DNA of 12,825 bases, taken from a virus (Duplodnaviria; Heunggongvirae; Uroviricota; Caudoviricetes). The stretch lies in IMG/VR virus record IMGVR_UViG_2690316345_000017. One strand, written 5' to 3'. Positions 1 through 12,825 of the stretch are shown piece by piece. Both the position numbers and the translations under genes were made by a program. The notes under the pieces were generated by a model. It searched no databases and was not told where the DNA came from. It saw only the letters and a program-made list of their open reading frames with translations. Positions within the stretch are counted from its first letter, which is position 1, and every line of letters begins with the position of its first letter.

Positions 1-195
1 GGCATCCGCATAGTGCACTGGGTTATCGCTCGCCACGGGAATATCTACGGCAGCAAGCCAGTAATGGGTTAAGTGATAACAGGTGTCTGGAAATATAGGG
101 GCAAATCCACATAGTCACATCGAACGCGATTCTGGCGGTGCCGCATTTTTATTTATTCATTTTCTGTGAGAGAAGGGCTAGTTCTGTAGAGGGAA

Positions 196-248: not shown

Positions 249-7325
<7,077 letters not shown>

Positions 7326-7514
7326 GCTTACCTTCCCTGAACGAGCTAACATAAATGCGCCCTTTCTAGCACAGCGAAAAAATGTAAATACTGATAGCAA
7401 TATGATTGAAAATTAATAACTTTTCGTTAGGCAGTTTTGGGTGTGAGTTGCAAGAGGGGAGACTACTGAATAACTCAAGTTTTATAATCGAGGGGAAAAT
7501 GGTGATGGCGTTCA

Positions 7515-7549
7515 TAGCAAAACGCCCTCAACCATAAAGGTCGAGGGCG
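7515..7549 (-). terminator. Candidate Rho-independent terminator downstream of asnT
   Basis: Minus-strand RNA reads CGCCCUCGACC-UUUAU-GGUUGAGGGCG (11-bp stem with one G-U) followed by UUUUGCUAU. It lies about 90 nt downstream of the tRNA-Asn 3' end. The plus-strand version has a mismatch and no U-tract. Confidence 0.5.
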
Positions 7550-7638: not shown

Positions 7639-7714
7639 TGGCTCCTCTGACTGGACTCGAACCAGTGACATACGGATTAACAGTCCGCCGTTCTACCGAC
7701 TGAACTACAGAGGA
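7639..7714 (-). tRNA. asnT: tRNA-Asn (anticodon GUU)
   Basis: Reverse complement of 7639..7714 is TCCTCTGTAGTTCAGTCGGTAGAACGGCGGACTGTTAATCCGTATGTCACTGGTTCGAGTCCAGTCAGAGGAGCCA, 76 nt with encoded CCA, which I recognise as canonical E. coli tRNA-Asn. Anticodon loop CUGUUAA. The symbol asnT is assigned from its position between mtfA and yeeJ. Confidence 0.96.
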
Positions 7715-7814: not shown

Positions 7815-8612
7815 TTAATGAACATTCGTCGCCGAAAACGAGTCTGTATCATTAGCGTGATGCAGTCTCTGCAAAGGATCTTGTTGATAAAATTGGCAGA
7901 AACGTTGCCACAATGAAGGGAAACGAGGAGCAAAAAGTTCTGGGGCGCTAAAGAAATATTCAGAAAGTACGGCAAAACATTCAGCAGGATCGCTGGCTGC
8001 ATAAGCATCAATGCTCGCCGCATTCTCGCCAACCAATTCGATTTCTTCCTGAATGTTGTTCATTGCAGCATGAAGATCGTGTTCCCAGCCAGCAACCTCA
8101 CGCAACGGAATAAAGGGAACTCCGCTGGCGCGATCGCCGTTACGGGTGTCCAGCTTATGAGCGACTTCATGAATAATCAGGTTAAAACCAGAAGCATCAA
8201 AAGAATCTTGTATATCCAACCAGTTCAAAACGATAGGCCCTTGCTGCCAGCTCTGACCTGACTGAACAATACGTTGGTTATGCACCAGACCGATATCGTC
8301 TTCCCATTCATCATCGACCACAAATGGCGCAGGATAAATTAAGACTTCATGAAAACCATCCAGCCATTCCAGTCCTAACTCCAGAACGGGTAGGCAAAAT
8401 AGAAGTGCTATCCGGCAGCTTCTTAATGAATCCAGTTCAAAGCCCTGTAAAGGAACAAGCCGCTTTTGCTGTAAAAAACGTTCGGCAAGAGTGACTAATT
8501 TGCTTTGTTCCTGTTCCGTCAGACACGTTAAAAGGGGGATCGATAGTGCTTCCTGCCAGGGAAGGGCAGTTTGATGTGCTGATTCTTGTACTTTCCAGGG
8601 CCACTTAATCAT
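7815..8612 (-). CDS. mtfA: Mlc titration factor A; HEXXH zinc-dependent peptidase-like protein
   Basis: The track ORF starts at a GTG (8651). The ATG at 8610-8612 gives 265 aa beginning [28 protein letters not shown], matching my recollection of E. coli MtfA. It contains the HEVAH metallopeptidase motif. Confidence 0.92.
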
Positions 8613-8661
8613 CGTTTTGCTCGCAAACTCGTCACTTGAACAAAATTGCACGGACAGGGAC

Positions 8662-8670
8662 TGTTAAAAT
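8662..8670 (+). promoter_or_regulatory. Possible extended -10 element (TGtTAAAAT) for serU
   Basis: TG at 8662-8663 and TAAAAT at 8665-8670, about 35 nt upstream of the mature tRNA-Ser 5' end and followed by a GC-rich discriminator (GCC). No convincing -35 at 17 +/- 1 nt spacing. This region is also the divergent mtfA upstream region. Confidence 0.25.
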
Positions 8671-8705
8671 GCCAAATTTCCTGGCATCATGGCAACCATC
8701 TGAAC

Positions 8706-8795
8706 GGAGAGATGCCGGAGCGGCTGAACGGACCGGTCTCGAAAACCGGAGTGGGGGCAACTCCACCGGGGGTTCAAATCCCCCTCTCTCCGCCA
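8706..8795 (+). tRNA. serU: tRNA-Ser (anticodon CGA), class II tRNA with long variable arm
   Basis: GGAGAGATGCCGGAGCGGCTGAACGGACCGGTCTCGAAAACCGGAGTGGGGGCAACTCCACCGGGGGTTCAAATCCCCCTCTCTCCGCCA, 90 nt. The 7-bp acceptor stem pairs perfectly, discriminator G, encoded CCA. Anticodon loop CUCGAAA gives anticodon CGA. Divergent from mtfA, as I recall for serU in E. coli. Confidence 0.96.
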
Positions 8796-8840
8796 AAATT
8801 CAATCACTTACACATCATTAAGTCAGTGACAAAAATCACA

Positions 8841-8877
8841 CTTGGAATTACTTGGAATATTTTCTTGGAATATTTTC
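8841..8877 (+). repeat. Tandem direct repeats (CTTGGAAT x3; 13-bp unit CTTGGAATATTTT x2) at the int 3' end; candidate integrase arm-type (P') sites
   Basis: CTTGGAATTA (8841-8850), then CTTGGAATATTTT (8851-8863) and CTTGGAATATTTT (8864-8876). They sit 46-82 bp from the tRNA 3' end and overlap the last int codons (NIPRKYSK) and stop. This is where P' arm sites are expected in an attL. Confidence 0.45.
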
Positions 8878-9873
8878 AGGTAACGGGACATCAAGTGTTG
8901 GTGAAACTTTAACCTTCCTGTCATAGATTAGCACTTGCCCTTCGGTTTTGTGACCAGAGAAAAGTTGCTTATCCCGGCTGCTTCCTTCATAGTCTGAAAT
9001 TCCTTTCGCCTTCAGATCATGAAAGGTGAAGTCGGTTAAAATACCTGAAATTTTTCCAGCACGATTTCTTGCATCTACCCACATTTCGTTAAAGCCTTTG
9101 TACATATATCGGTTGCCGTATTGATTGCTGATCACATAGGCAGATTTTGGTAACTGTTTTGCTTTTTCGATCGCTGCCTGTAATCGTGGACTCCATGCTT
9201 TTATCTGTTTTTTTCCGGTTTTCCCTTGCTGGATGAATATCCCGTCGTTTCCAATCTGTTCCCATTTCAGCGATAACACATCGGAAACCCTCGCTGCACA
9301 CAGATAGGCAATTTCCATTGCGATAAAAACAGGAAGAGGTGCAACGCTTAATACTGCCTGGTATTCTTTGTCGGTTACATATCGTTCGCGGTTTTTGGCC
9401 TTGAATTTACTTACACCTGCACATGGGTTAGCCTTCACGTACCCTCGCTCATACCCCCAACTGTAAACACGGGACATACTGCTTTTTTCATGGTTGGCTT
9501 GCGTTTTACTCTGCTCCCCTCTTTTGTCCATGTATCGACGGATGTGTTCTGGTTTTATGGAATCCGCTGGTACCTTACCGAATACGGCAAGCAACTTTTT
9601 TTGATGTTGCAGATAATCTTTTTGTGTTCTTGGACTAAGGTCACTGTAATAGGCGCTGGCGAGGAATTTTTCCCACAAGCGACCGAATGTCATTGCACGA
9701 TCGCGATTATTTACAGTTTCCTCATACTTTTTCCATAAAGCAGCTAAACCATCCTTGATGGCGGTTAGTGTGACAGATTCTCTGGATGTTGGTTTCCATA
9801 CATAACTATATTTATTTGGGTATACATTTGGAGGTAATTTTTCGTGTTCAGGATTTTTCCTTCGTCTTCCCAT
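8848..9873 (-). CDS. int: Phage integrase, tyrosine recombinase of the lambda Int family
   Basis: 341 aa. N-terminus MGRRRKNPEHEKLPPNVY resembles lambda Int (MGRRRSHERRDLPPNLY). Box I AARVSDVLSLKW, QQGKTGKK (lambda K235 region), HDLKAKGISDY (lambda HELRSLSARLY), and GHKTEGQVLIY with the catalytic Tyr. Adjacent to the tRNA 3' end. Confidence 0.95.
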   Translation of the reverse strand: MGRRRKNPEHEKLPPNVYPNKYSYVWKPTSRESVTLTAIKDGLAALWKKYEETVNNRDRAMTFGRLWEKFLASAYYSDLSPRTQKDYLQHQKKLLAVFGKVPADSIKPEHIRRYMDKRGEQSKTQANHEKSSMSRVYSWGYERGYVKANPCAGVSKFKAKNRERYVTDKEYQAVLSVAPLPVFIAMEIAYLCAARVSDVLSLKWEQIGNDGIFIQQGKTGKKQIKAWSPRLQAAIEKAKQLPKSAYVISNQYGNRYMYKGFNEMWVDARNRAGKISGILTDFTFHDLKAKGISDYEGSSRDKQLFSGHKTEGQVLIYDRKVKVSPTLDVPLPENIPRKYSK

Positions 9874-10076
9874 CAGATCGCACCAAAATTCGGCTCTACC
9901 TCGCGTGGTGGTAAAGTTTTATTGCAGGTAAATAGATCCCGGCTGACAATCGGTTTGCCACTACGATTGGTATAGAACGGAAGCCCGTTTTCCATTAACC
10001 ATTTTCGCTGGTGGCTTGCATATTTGCAGCCCGTTAATATTAGCAATTCATCTTCGGTTAAAAATAAGCTGCTCAT
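9873..10076 (-). CDS. xis: Small DUF4224-like protein, putative excisionase / recombination directionality factor
   Basis: 67 aa (MSSLFLTEDELLILTGCKYASHQRKWLMENGLPFYTNRSGKPIVSRDLF...), matching the DUF4224 pattern as I recall it. Its stop overlaps the int start (TGATG at 9871-9875), suggesting translational coupling. Position immediately upstream of int is typical for xis. Confidence 0.65.
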   Translation of the reverse strand: MSSLFLTEDELLILTGCKYASHQRKWLMENGLPFYTNRSGKPIVSRDLFTCNKTLPPREVEPNFGAI

Positions 10077-10093
10077 AGCTATATCTCATAACC

Positions 10094-10119
10094 GCCGCTA
10101 ACTATATACGGTTAGCGGC
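10094..10119. promoter_or_regulatory. Perfect 9-bp inverted repeat GCCGCTAAC-N8-GTTAGCGGC between the exonuclease-like gene and xis
   Basis: Seen directly: GCCGCTAAC (10094-10102), spacer TATATACG, GTTAGCGGC (10111-10119). No flanking U-tract on either strand, so not a typical intrinsic terminator. It ends about 17 nt upstream of the xis start codon. Function unknown (operator, RNA stem-loop or processing site). Confidence 0.35.
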
Positions 10120-10134
10120 AATTAGGGTTGAACA

Positions 10135-12576
10135 TTAAAAATCAGCCTGACTCGGGATCAGTTTTTGCCAGATAGCTGAAACGTATTTTGCCTGGTAACG
10201 AGCGTCATCAAGTGCATTATGGCGCTCACCTTCGAATGGAATAGCCGTTCTGGCATCGAAGTCTATGGCTTTCCCCAGCTCAACGATTGTGCGTACATCG
10301 CGATCGTTGTAGTAACGCCACGGGCAGGGGATCCCCTGCCGTTCGTATGAACGGCGCAAAATCGTGTTGTCGAAGTTGGCTCCATTTCCCCAGACCTGAA
10401 CAAAAAATTCACCGGAGTTTTCGTCGATAAATTCCCGCAATTGTAACAGTGCATCATCTAACGGGATTTCATCGGTCATAATGGCAGATTGCGCTTCGCG
10501 TGATTGCTTAAGCCACCATTTAATGGTGTCCCGATCAATGACTCCGCCAGCAGTTTCCAGATCGATAGTCTTACTAAATTCCGGTCCCATATCTCCGGTT
10601 TGCGGATCGAAAAATATTGCACCTATTGAGATGATCGGGGCATCAGGATTTTTTCCCATGGTTTCAAGGTCGATCATTAGATGGTCACACGTCCTGCTGG
10701 TGGATGTGATTTCGTGATGACCGTTCACCTTAATTGAGCGATCTGCCGTCTCGCCAGTTTTATTATCGCTGGCGTGATGCTGATTGCCGCCAGGGTTCTC
10801 CTTGTGTGGATGTTCAGCGTCTTCCATTTCCTCCGGATCATTTTCCTGAACTTCAACCTGATTCTCTTCATCGAATGTTTCCTGGTATGTTGCGTCGCCC
10901 ATCACCGCGCCACAATCAGGGCAGTTGCCGCCACCGCTCTGACCGCAGGCGGTGCAGACTTTTTCCGGTTCCTGTTGCGCTACTGGTTCGGATTGTTTCG
11001 TTTCTGGCTCGTTTTGTAACGCATTTGGGCTGTTTTGTTCCGCTTTTTGGTCGTTCCGTTCCGATTCATGCTGGTTCTGGTTCACAGAATCGCGAGTCTG
11101 GATCCCCTTGACCCATTTCGGATCATTAGGGTCGCTAATCCCCTCAACAAATTCACCACGCGATACAGCAAGTAACTTATCGGCGTCAGGCTGGCTGATA
11201 TTGGCTGCCTGCATAATTTTGTTTACTTCGTCAGCGGTGACTTTTACTTGGTTAGCGGAACTCACCTGCGACTGAGCATCCAGCGACTGCGCGTTCTGGC
11301 CATGTTCAGTTGTATCCGGTTCCATTGTTTCAGTTGTTGCCTGTTCACCTGCCATTGCGTCAGATGGTTGTGGTTTTTCTTCTTCTGTTTCACGCTCAGT
11401 AACCACCTCGCGGTTAATTTCTTCCAGGATATCTTTTTCCGGCGTATGCCGGGCAGCTGTGAGAGTTTCCTTGCTGGGGTTCTCGTGATCAGTTTCCGTC
11501 AAATAGGCGTTGATATACCCCTGAAGGCGTCCCGGGTAGTGATAAAATTCAGGGTGTGCGCTTCGGATAAGTGCAAAAATAGCGGCGCGGGAATAGTCCA
11601 GAATACCCGGGGTTGCACGAAGTGCTGCGGACCATTCTTTGAACGGACTTTCTTTGTTCAGGACTACTTCTTTTGCGCGACGATAAATGCTGCCCGGAAT
11701 TTCATAAATATTAAAATCCATCGGAAGTGTGGCTGCTGCAATCTCCACATCCAGTGTGTCGAGGGTGTGTACTAAATTCGGATTGCGATCGGTTTTGTTC
11801 CCACCGCCAGCATTAGCACCGGAAGCCGTGCGGGTGATGCGTGAAACACGATTTCCTTTCATCCACTCTTTTGTCAGCAGACCCCGATCAGTGTAGTCAG
11901 CGTCCAGGTATGCTTCGAAAAAAGCAGTTATTAGGCCCAGGTCTGAATTACCAGGATTAGGGAAAACTTTGTCAGTGTCACGAACCAGTTTGTGGAGGTC
12001 GCGAATCTCCAGCGAGTCGAGCAGACTGGTTTTATGCGAAATAGCCAGGGCAGTAACAGCCGGTAGTTCTTCAGCCCGTGCAATGTGTAATGCCTGGAGT
12101 TCGTCGCGTGAAACGTGCGTTACTGGTTTTTCGCTGCCGTGTTGAGCAAGCCAACGAATGGGCAGTTCCTGACCGGAGACAGGCAGAAGCATGCTCTCCT
12201 CAATCTCAGTCATGTCTTCGCCGTTGATGTTGGTATTGTCAGTGCTGGCTGGTTTGTCCTGAACAGAGGGGGAAGGGCCGATAAATGTCATTGTGATGCC
12301 ATCTTTCCCGCCTTTTTCATAGCGGTTGCAGAATTCAGTATCAAACACGCCTTCTGGCGGAAGGTCGTCAACAACGGGCAAATTGACGCGGACGGGTTTT
12401 TTAAAGTCGTCTTCATCATAATCGTTGTCATCCATTGCGGTAATGCAGCGGGAGATTGCAACAGATAATTTTTTTGCTGTAGTCCAGTAAAAACCACCTT
12501 TAATTCCCAGGCGTTTTCTTACTTTGTCATTTTTTGCTTCGCAATATAGTGCAAATTCTTCTTTATCAGTGCTCAT
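10135..12576 (-). CDS. Prophage RecE-like ('exodeoxyribonuclease VIII'-type) protein: RecE N-terminal-like region, acidic linker with CxxC-x7-CxxC zinc ribbon, C-terminal DEDDh (DnaQ-like) 3'-5' exonuclease domain
   Basis: 813 aa, ATG start with GAGG about 10 nt upstream. Residues ~115-400 ([41 protein letters not shown]...) resemble what I recall of the Rac RecE N-terminal region. Residues ~400-625 are acidic/Q-rich low complexity containing [16 protein letters not shown]. The C-terminus carries DEDDh motifs: LMIDLETMG (Exo I), [13 protein letters not shown] (Exo II), HNALDDARY (Exo III). Confidence 0.85.
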
Positions 12577-12669
12577 TATTGGTAAACCTCATCACAGATT
12601 TAAGGGTGAACAAATCTCTGCCATTGCTGACATATAAGAATGAAACTGGATATTTATTACGGTGCTGTT

Positions 12670-12825
12670 TTAAAATCCTGCCGGGATTTCGTTATTATCC
12701 TGGTGAATAACTTTATCGACCGGATAACAGTTGCCTGGAATTTTCTGTTCGGTTGCTGCTGCCATACATTCCTGCATTGTTCTGTGAACACTGACTGCAA
12801 TATCAACTGGCTCTCCGGAAACAAG
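12670..12825 (-). CDS. 3' end of a prophage ORF of unknown function (5' part beyond the window)
   Basis: Minus-strand frame open from the window edge: ...LVSGEPVDIAVSVHRTMQECMAAATEQKIPGNCYPVDKVIHQDNNEIPAGF*, stop at 12670-12672. A second frame is also open to 12657, so the frame is uncertain. Position matches the next gene of the early-left operon. Confidence 0.3.
   Translation of the reverse strand, partial: LVSGEPVDIAVSVHRTMQECMAAATEQKIPGNCYPVDKVIHQDNNEIPAGF

Follow-up and report, generated by a model that had tools for sequence, protein, structure and literature searches.

Evidence that a chimeric serU tRNA gene marks the left attachment site of a lambdoid prophage of the Sp14/CP-933U/042p6 type in Escherichia coli

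In the 12,825-nt stretch of DNA held as virus record IMGVR_UViG_2690316345_000017 (hereafter "the window," meaning the whole of that stretch), an intact gene for tRNA-Ser(CGA), serU, stands between genes in their usual Escherichia coli order and an integrase gene. This raises the question of whether serU is the place at which a phage entered the chromosome and, if so, which part of the tRNA gene belongs to the host and which to the phage. An initial annotation, made from the letters of the sequence, had proposed a prophage left junction at this position. We are highly confident that the window holds attL (BOP') and that the prophage inserted in serU is temperate, lambdoid, and of the Sp14/CP-933U/042p6 type. 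The element is real and ordinary, a type of prophage that has already been described, and it carries an ST64B-like integrase. The features on which this answer turns are the following.

8706-8795, plus strand: serU, tRNA-Ser(CGA), supported by ARAGORN, Rfam (tRNA, 57 bits), the cloverleaf fold, and the alignment of attL, attB, and attR
8734-8795, plus strand: 62-bp segment common to attP and attB (the att "core" in the broad sense), duplicated at attR in relatives
8734-8752, plus strand: 19-bp interval holding the strand-exchange site, identical in attL, attR, and attB
8753-8764, plus strand: variable-arm stem with the marker positions 8753 (G48) and 8764 (C59); the host allele is A48-T59
8796-8875, plus strand: att P' arm, in which CTTGGAAT occurs as three direct repeats, candidate arm-type binding sites for the integrase (Int)
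8848-9873, minus strand: integrase, 341 aa, a tyrosine recombinase of the lambda Int type (Pfam, alignment with lambda Int, 15 relatives)

Both ARAGORN and Rfam placed an intact tRNA-Ser with anticodon CGA here, and an Rfam scan of the whole window returned nothing beyond the asnT and serU tRNAs. The integrase open reading frame (ORF) reads toward serU and its stop codon occupies 8848-8850, leaving a gap of exactly 52 bp (8796-8847) to the 3' CCA end of the tRNA gene; the spacing and orientation given in the initial annotation were exact to the base. A scan for promoters and terminators over 8500-10300 gave sites no more common than in shuffled sequence, and none between serU and int.

To whom the tRNA gene belongs was read from a three-way alignment of the window (attL), E. 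coli K-12 (attB), and E. coli 042 (attR). The attL sequence followed K-12 on the left and through the tRNA and diverged straight after CCA, and it is composed of a host left flank and a phage right flank. The attR sequence was unrelated on its left side up to CGGTCTCGAAAACC, which begins at tRNA position 29 (C29 of the anticodon stem, window position 8734); from there on it matched K-12 through the tRNA end and into the yodB-side flank, so that its composition is a phage left flank and a K-12 right flank. Since attR and K-12 are identical from 8734 to the tRNA end, attP and attB have 62 bp in common (8734-8795).

We looked for the far end of the prophage with the serU 3' end. A second, 62-nt copy of the serU 3' end was found at the far prophage end in both 042 and MS6192, starting at CGGTCTCGAAAACC in each genome, ending at the 3' CCA, and adjoining yodB/zinT, a flank of the K-12 type. 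The distance from repeat to repeat was 40,294 bp in MS6192 and ~57.5 kb in 042, so in these relatives the direct repeat lay within the ~60 kb downstream in which it had been anticipated. Junction identity was 99.7-100% in genomes with the second serU copy.

The two copies of the 62-bp repeat differed at 2 positions, where attL has G (8753) and C (8764), as against A and T in both attB and attR. In tRNA numbering the two positions are 48 and 59, base-paired partners in the long variable arm; because they pair, the change is compensatory, and both versions form the same cloverleaf. G48-C59 was present at attL in 6/6 lysogens (042, SMS-3-5, MS6192, O157:H7 PV15-279, and two UK isolates), and A48-T59 in the K-12 attB and in 2/2 attR copies (042 and MS6192). 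The earlier proposal that the phage must supply a duplicated tRNA 3' segment was borne out by these two variable-arm differences, which tell the phage copy from the host copy. They show directly that a lysogen's serU takes its 3' part from the phage and that the host's own 3' part has been displaced to attR. The lysogen's serU is intact but chimeric: nucleotides 1-28 are host-derived, and the sequence 3' of the crossover is phage-derived.

It could be argued that G48-C59 is an ordinary polymorphism of the host with no connection to the phage, and that the crossover took place at the very 3' end of the tRNA. The exact 62-nt G48-C59 segment does occur in Brenneria, Rosenbergiella, Pluralibacter, Entomohabitans, and Enterobacillus, and a related integrase was mostly undetected in the adjoining DNA there, the Enterobacillus locus giving only a 48-aa fragment match. 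To judge from the divergent downstream sequences, G48-C59 is probably the native allele in these non-E. coli genera. Within E. coli, however, the allele follows the junction and not the lineage, and on the same chromosomes (042 and MS6192) attL carries G..C while attR carries A..T, identical to K-12. We rejected the host polymorphism because attL and attR differ within one chromosome, and we regard it as very improbable. The phage-borne serU copy is closer to non-E. coli serU than to E. coli serU; one 62-nt G48-C59 match is labeled Vagococcus and is possibly contamination.

The marker positions, together with the limit of attL/attR identity, place the crossover within 8734-8752, in the anticodon stem-loop. 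The left bound of this 19-bp interval is the end of attL/attR identity and the right bound is the first marker difference, at 8753. The att boundaries are fixed to the nucleotide in this way, both for the 62-bp common segment and for the 19-bp crossover interval. The interval contains the anticodon stem-loop, CCGGT-CTCGAAA-ACCGG, and by analogy the anticodon loop would house a 7-bp overlap, flanked by the two arms of the stem as inverted core-type sites. Other tRNA-integrating tyrosine recombinases are known to have their overlap there, and the tRNA sublocations used by integrases were reportedly classified by Williams in 2002. Past the CCA, 8796-8815 and the K-12 flank downstream of serU share TCAAT[C/G]ACTTA at a 1-nt shift, and strings like ATTCAAnCACTTA occur downstream of serU in other genera; the shared string may be left over from att homology or may be a tRNA trailer that has been conserved.

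How often the site is occupied was determined in a collection of 5,426 complete E. coli genomes, using a 330-nt probe across the K-12 empty site and a 321-nt probe across the attL junction and counting a genome when at least 80% of the probe was covered. The prophage-free reference, K-12 MG1655, has the order zinT-yodB-serU-mtfA-asnT-yeeJ without phage genes: zinT-yodB-serU-mtfA are joined, and int-xis is absent. The initial annotation gave K-12 only core genes on the int side of serU; the genes there are yodB and zinT. An empty serU site was found in 3,856 genomes (71%) and the attL junction in 1,144 (21%, O157:H7 among them); the remaining ~8% had something else at serU. The description of int-xis as part of a strain-specific accessory insertion was thus upheld, these genes being absent from K-12 and from the 71% of complete genomes with an uninterrupted K-12-like site. 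The segment 8600-12825 matched E. coli 042 at 100% identity and many other strains at 99.8%, and at least 80% of it was present in 268/5,426 genomes. The best matches to the whole window were 99.7% identical, from position 110 on.

We then asked what the integrase itself says about the reaction. It matched three Pfam families at or above their gathering scores, Phage_integrase (PF00589, 44.7 bits, cutoff 27.1), Phage_int_M (PF22022, 27.3 bits, cutoff 27), and Phage_int_SAM_3 (PF14659, 24.8 bits, cutoff 22.6), and a match to Phage_int_SAM_4 fell below its cutoff (23.8 versus 27 bits). It aligned with lambda Int residues 1-338 (E = 1e-12), the arm-binding N terminus included, where MGRRRKNPEHEKLPPNVY is aligned with lambda MGRRRSHERRDLPPNLY (motif MGRRR...LPPN.Y). 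This similarity points to an N-terminal arm-type DNA-binding domain, and attP has repeats to match. Structures of lambda Int matched over residues 1-313 (E = 1e-12). Residues R195, K218, H285, H308, and Y317 correspond to lambda R212, K235, H308, H333, and Y342.

The repeats are copies of an 8-mer, CTTGGAAT, which matched three times in the window, at 8841-8848, 8851-8858, and 8864-8871, against 0.54 matches expected in 12.8 kb. A 662-bp attP, reconstructed by joining the P arm of 042 to the core and to the P' arm of the window, contained the 8-mer exactly five times: twice in the P arm, once in inverted orientation, and three times as a direct repeat in the P' arm. The arm sites of lambda are likewise distributed 2 + 3, and the copies here are candidates for arm-type binding by Int. 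Those in the P' arm overlap the int stop codon and final codons, and the end of the integrase, P-E-N-I-P-R-K-Y-S-K-stop, is encoded by these repeats (window 8841-8880). Because the tail codons are written by the arm repeats, the protein tail and the DNA-binding sites constrain each other. The NIP/YSK tail residues are kept in homologues at 63-69% identity.

Taken as a mechanism, the phage attP would carry a 62-bp copy of the 3' part of serU, from the anticodon stem to CCA. The N-terminal domain of Int would bind the CTTGGAAT arm repeats, three in the P' arm and two in the P arm, and the C-terminal domains would bind the core at the anticodon stem, with strands exchanged in the anticodon stem-loop. 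Integration would leave a complete serU with a phage 3' part (G48-C59) and displace the host 3' part (A48-T59) by ~40 kb, to attR beside yodB; a DUF4224 protein encoded upstream of int would act as the excision directionality factor. We infer the exact 7-bp overlap, the binding of Int to the repeats, the role of Xis, and any present-day activity of the window's copy.

Several points weigh against a prophage that integrated by this route. The Arg II position (lambda R311) is K288 in the integrase, and Arg II is 99.1% conserved among tyrosine recombinases, with a few natural lysines (PMC2943603). The RefSeq annotation (Prokaryotic Genome Annotation Pipeline, PGAP) labels the integrase "frameshifted" in 042, SMS-3-5, and MS6192. 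No excised circular attP or joined P-P' DNA was found in the phage collection, and no published experiments on this element were found. Finally, the far junction, the attR distance, and the completeness of the prophage are extrapolated from relatives to the window's genome.

These points bear on the possibility that the window holds a grounded or partial remnant, which entered at serU and no longer excises, either through a defective int or because only its int-xis-exonuclease end is left. Besides the label given by PGAP in three genomes, such a remnant would fit the O157:H7 integrase split by IS1203, the 042 terL split by a nested element, and the fact that the window ends 4 kb into the prophage. 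The integrase, however, is an uninterrupted 341-aa ORF that matches 15 relatives (327-346 aa) end to end, and its C-terminal ...PENIPRKYSK is present, the KYSK/YSK tail being common to relatives down to 63-69% identity. An E. albertii protein that is 85% identical and likewise 341 aa long is annotated as intact by NCBI. Given the uninterrupted ORF, the shared C terminus, and the intact E. albertii protein, we read the "frameshifted" label as an annotation artifact in the repeat-encoded tail. A real integrase frameshift was rejected on the family alignment; the PGAP pseudogene call ends at window position 8823.

The lysine at Arg II also looks like a family trait and not a lesion. None of the six catalytic positions, K288 included, varied across an alignment of 16 family members, which share 56-97% identity with the query and include relatives of the active phage ST64B, and the R292K mutant of Cre is active but ligation-impaired (PMC2943603). 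The 40.3-kb MS6192 copy, moreover, has an intact terL. We consider a remnant unlikely, and reduced integrase function is a residual possibility. The only phage-collection records with this int, ON470583.1 and ON470580.1, were rejected as a source of attP, being partial prophage predictions with host flanks (mtfA, asnT, and yersiniabactin genes). The absence of attP from the phage collection is not evidence of an inability to excise.

A bolder reading, which we hold to be doubtful and offer as a speculation, is that serU-specific integrases of the Sp14/ST64B type form a widespread natural subfamily with Lys at Arg II and with NIPRKYSK-stop codons written by their own P' arm repeats. If Lys were truly catalytic and the enzyme efficient, such integrases would offer a natural model of compensation for the ligation defect of engineered Arg II-to-Lys mutants. 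In a weaker variant, lysogeny would rewrite serU (A48-U59 to G48-C59) with a measurable effect on the function of tRNA-Ser(CGA).

The remaining genes of the window lie on either side of the junction, as follows.

9873-10076, minus strand: excisionase-like gene, DUF4224, 67 aa (Pfam, PHROG, ST64B Sb29)
10135-12576, minus strand: exonuclease of the early-left operon, 813 aa (Pfam, PHROG 607/20376)
12670-12825, minus strand: 3' portion of a ydfD-like DUF1482 gene, truncated where the window stops (PHROG 1092)
7815-8612, minus strand: mtfA, host flank on the B side of attL (Pfam Peptidase_M90, K-12 order)
7639-7714, minus strand: asnT (ARAGORN, Rfam)
249-7400, minus strand: yeeJ, in the same order as in K-12 MG1655

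The DUF4224 gene overlaps the integrase start by 1 nt. Its product matched Pfam DUF4224 (E = 2e-15) and PHROG 1266, "excisionase" (E = 3e-21), and was 36% identical to Sb29, the annotated excisionase of ST64B; the position and size of the gene would suit a recombination directionality factor, a role that the Pfam entry, named only DUF4224, does not itself assign. The 813-aa exonuclease joins an N-terminal Exonuc_VIII region to a C-terminal Rv2179c-like 3'-5' exonuclease domain; it corresponds to Ec042-2203, the "putative exonuclease VIII" of the 042 genome paper (PMC2808357). Only the N-terminal RecE-like region (PF06630) of this "exonuclease VIII" is of that kind, and it is fused to a DEDD-type Rv2179c-like domain. 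No RecT- or Bet-like partner for the exonuclease was visible in the window. The ydfD-like gene matched PHROG 1092 (E = 1.5e-28) over profile positions 13-63 of 63, and in relatives dicB comes next after it (RefSeq annotation of 042).

In the RefSeq annotation of 042 and MS6192, the prophage continues beyond the window with dicB, ydfABC, cI/cro-like regulators, replication genes, RusA, Q, and phage tRNAs, then with holin/lysozyme/Rz, HNH, TerS/TerL, and an HK97-type portal, protease, and capsid, and then with a lambda-type tail including J, Lom, and tail fibers, at the end of which it adjoins yodB/zinT. This is a lambda-like modular gene order, of which the window itself shows int, xis, the exonuclease, and ydfD.

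This gene content also bears on whether the insertion could be a non-phage genomic or pathogenicity island. The gene serU is the site of a 22-kb, 38% GC island carrying TcpC (PAI-serU) in the uropathogenic E. coli strains 536 and CFT073 (PMC7545054), and the ~8% of genomes with neither an empty site nor the attL junction leave room for elements of that kind. PAI-serU uses the same tRNA gene but is non-phage, and the window is unlike it: its genes are lambdoid early-left genes (int, xis, exonuclease, and ydfD/dicB), in 042 and MS6192 the identical module leads on to full phage modules for structure and lysis, and the window's GC content is 42-50%, not 38%. An island of the PAI-serU type is refuted by the gene content, and we give such an island almost no credence.

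On the other side of serU, the order mtfA-asnT-yeeJ was the same as in K-12 MG1655, and the view of this side as core chromosome stood, with the qualifications that asnT, which is occupied in 042, is a hotspot for islands in its own right and that the end of an insertion sequence (IS) abuts yeeJ. Window positions 1-109 are the end of a multicopy IS3-family element that also occurs on plasmids, adjoining the region 3' of yeeJ, and the closest genomes match the window only from position 110 onward, apart from this IS end.

The value of the locus lies mainly in correct annotation, as a confirmed case of textbook phage integration into a tRNA gene. The census adds occupancy figures for serU, and G48-C59 versus A48-T59 is diagnostic for past or present occupancy by this type of phage. 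Only three points are mildly unusual: Lys occupies the Arg II position throughout the family, the integrase tail is encoded by arm sites, and the 042 copy has, outside the window, a nested element that encodes a capsid.

The closest known element is 042p6/ROD30 of E. coli 042, which, besides sharing 8600-12825 without a difference, has matching outer limits, serU (2272386) and the serU 3' repeat (~2214912-2214973). In the 042 genome paper, ROD30 spans 2214943..2272385 with the exonuclease VIII gene as cargo but is divided where phage tRNA genes occur inside it, giving one prophage at 2214943..2256641 and another at 2256892..2272385; the insertion sites named there are tRNA-Arg and tRNA-Met, and not serU (PMC2808357). 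The serU direct repeats show instead that ROD30 should be read as a single prophage that is bounded by serU and contains a nested element. Outside the phage part, asnT is unoccupied in the window, with yeeJ directly next to it, whereas 042 has an integrase gene beside asnT; because asnT occupancy differs, the window comes from a different strain than 042 despite 100% identity of the phage part. Two UK isolates also have an integrase gene beside asnT, as in 042, and in one of them (ON470580) yersiniabactin genes (ybtQ and salicylate synthetase) are found there too, which we read as the high-pathogenicity island.

The 042 copy differs from MS6192, whose terL is intact, in having a 15.2-kb element nested in terL. 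This element lies outside the window (15,231 bp, NC_017626.1 2235725-2250955) and is flanked by an imperfect 14-bp repeat, TTGGTAAGAATATT / TTGGTAAAAAAATT. It encodes its own integrase, helix-turn-helix regulators, BRO-N, an Icd-like protein, a DUF927 protein that is possibly primase/helicase-like, SSB, and PerC, followed by capsid, protease, portal, connector, HNH, TerS, and TerL, a gene set that resembles those of capsid-forming phage-inducible chromosomal island (PICI) satellites.

Sp14 of strain Sakai and CP-933U of EDL933 are placed at the same chromosomal position on the authority of the 042 paper, which puts 042p6 and Sp14 at corresponding positions (PMC2808357), and serU is also listed as a site of Shiga toxin (Stx) phages (PMC8065619). 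In O157:H7 PV15-279, the junction from serU through the P' arm to the int 3' end was identical (321/321 nt), but the integrase is split by IS1203 and presumably inactive, and the exonuclease allele is different (locus extract 5184-7547).

The nearest characterized integrase is that of ST64B (Sb28), which is 58.7% identical over 96% of the length, and the ST64B sequence record remarks on the similarity of its Int to the CP-933U integrase. This Salmonella phage is reported to insert in serU (PMC10100743). It was the one relative for which a true attP was seen, and that attP has the same layout, with xis-int directed toward a tRNA 3' segment that runs from CGGTCTCGAAAACC, at the same nucleotide, to CCA. 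The ST64B segment, however, is that of Salmonella serU and not of E. coli serU; the triple direct repeat between int and core is TTTTCTCA rather than CTTGGAAT; the spacer between int and core is ~125 bp rather than 52 bp; and the 3'-5' exoribonuclease encoded upstream of xis is a stand-alone protein of 189 aa rather than part of an 813-aa fusion. Lambda, finally, has an Int that aligns along its whole length, and its int adjoins the P' arm with xis upstream, overlapping int. It differs in its 15-bp core between gal and bio, against a tRNA gene with a 62-bp common segment here, in having R311 at the Arg II position, where our integrase has Lys, and in its Xis family, the Xis here belonging to DUF4224.

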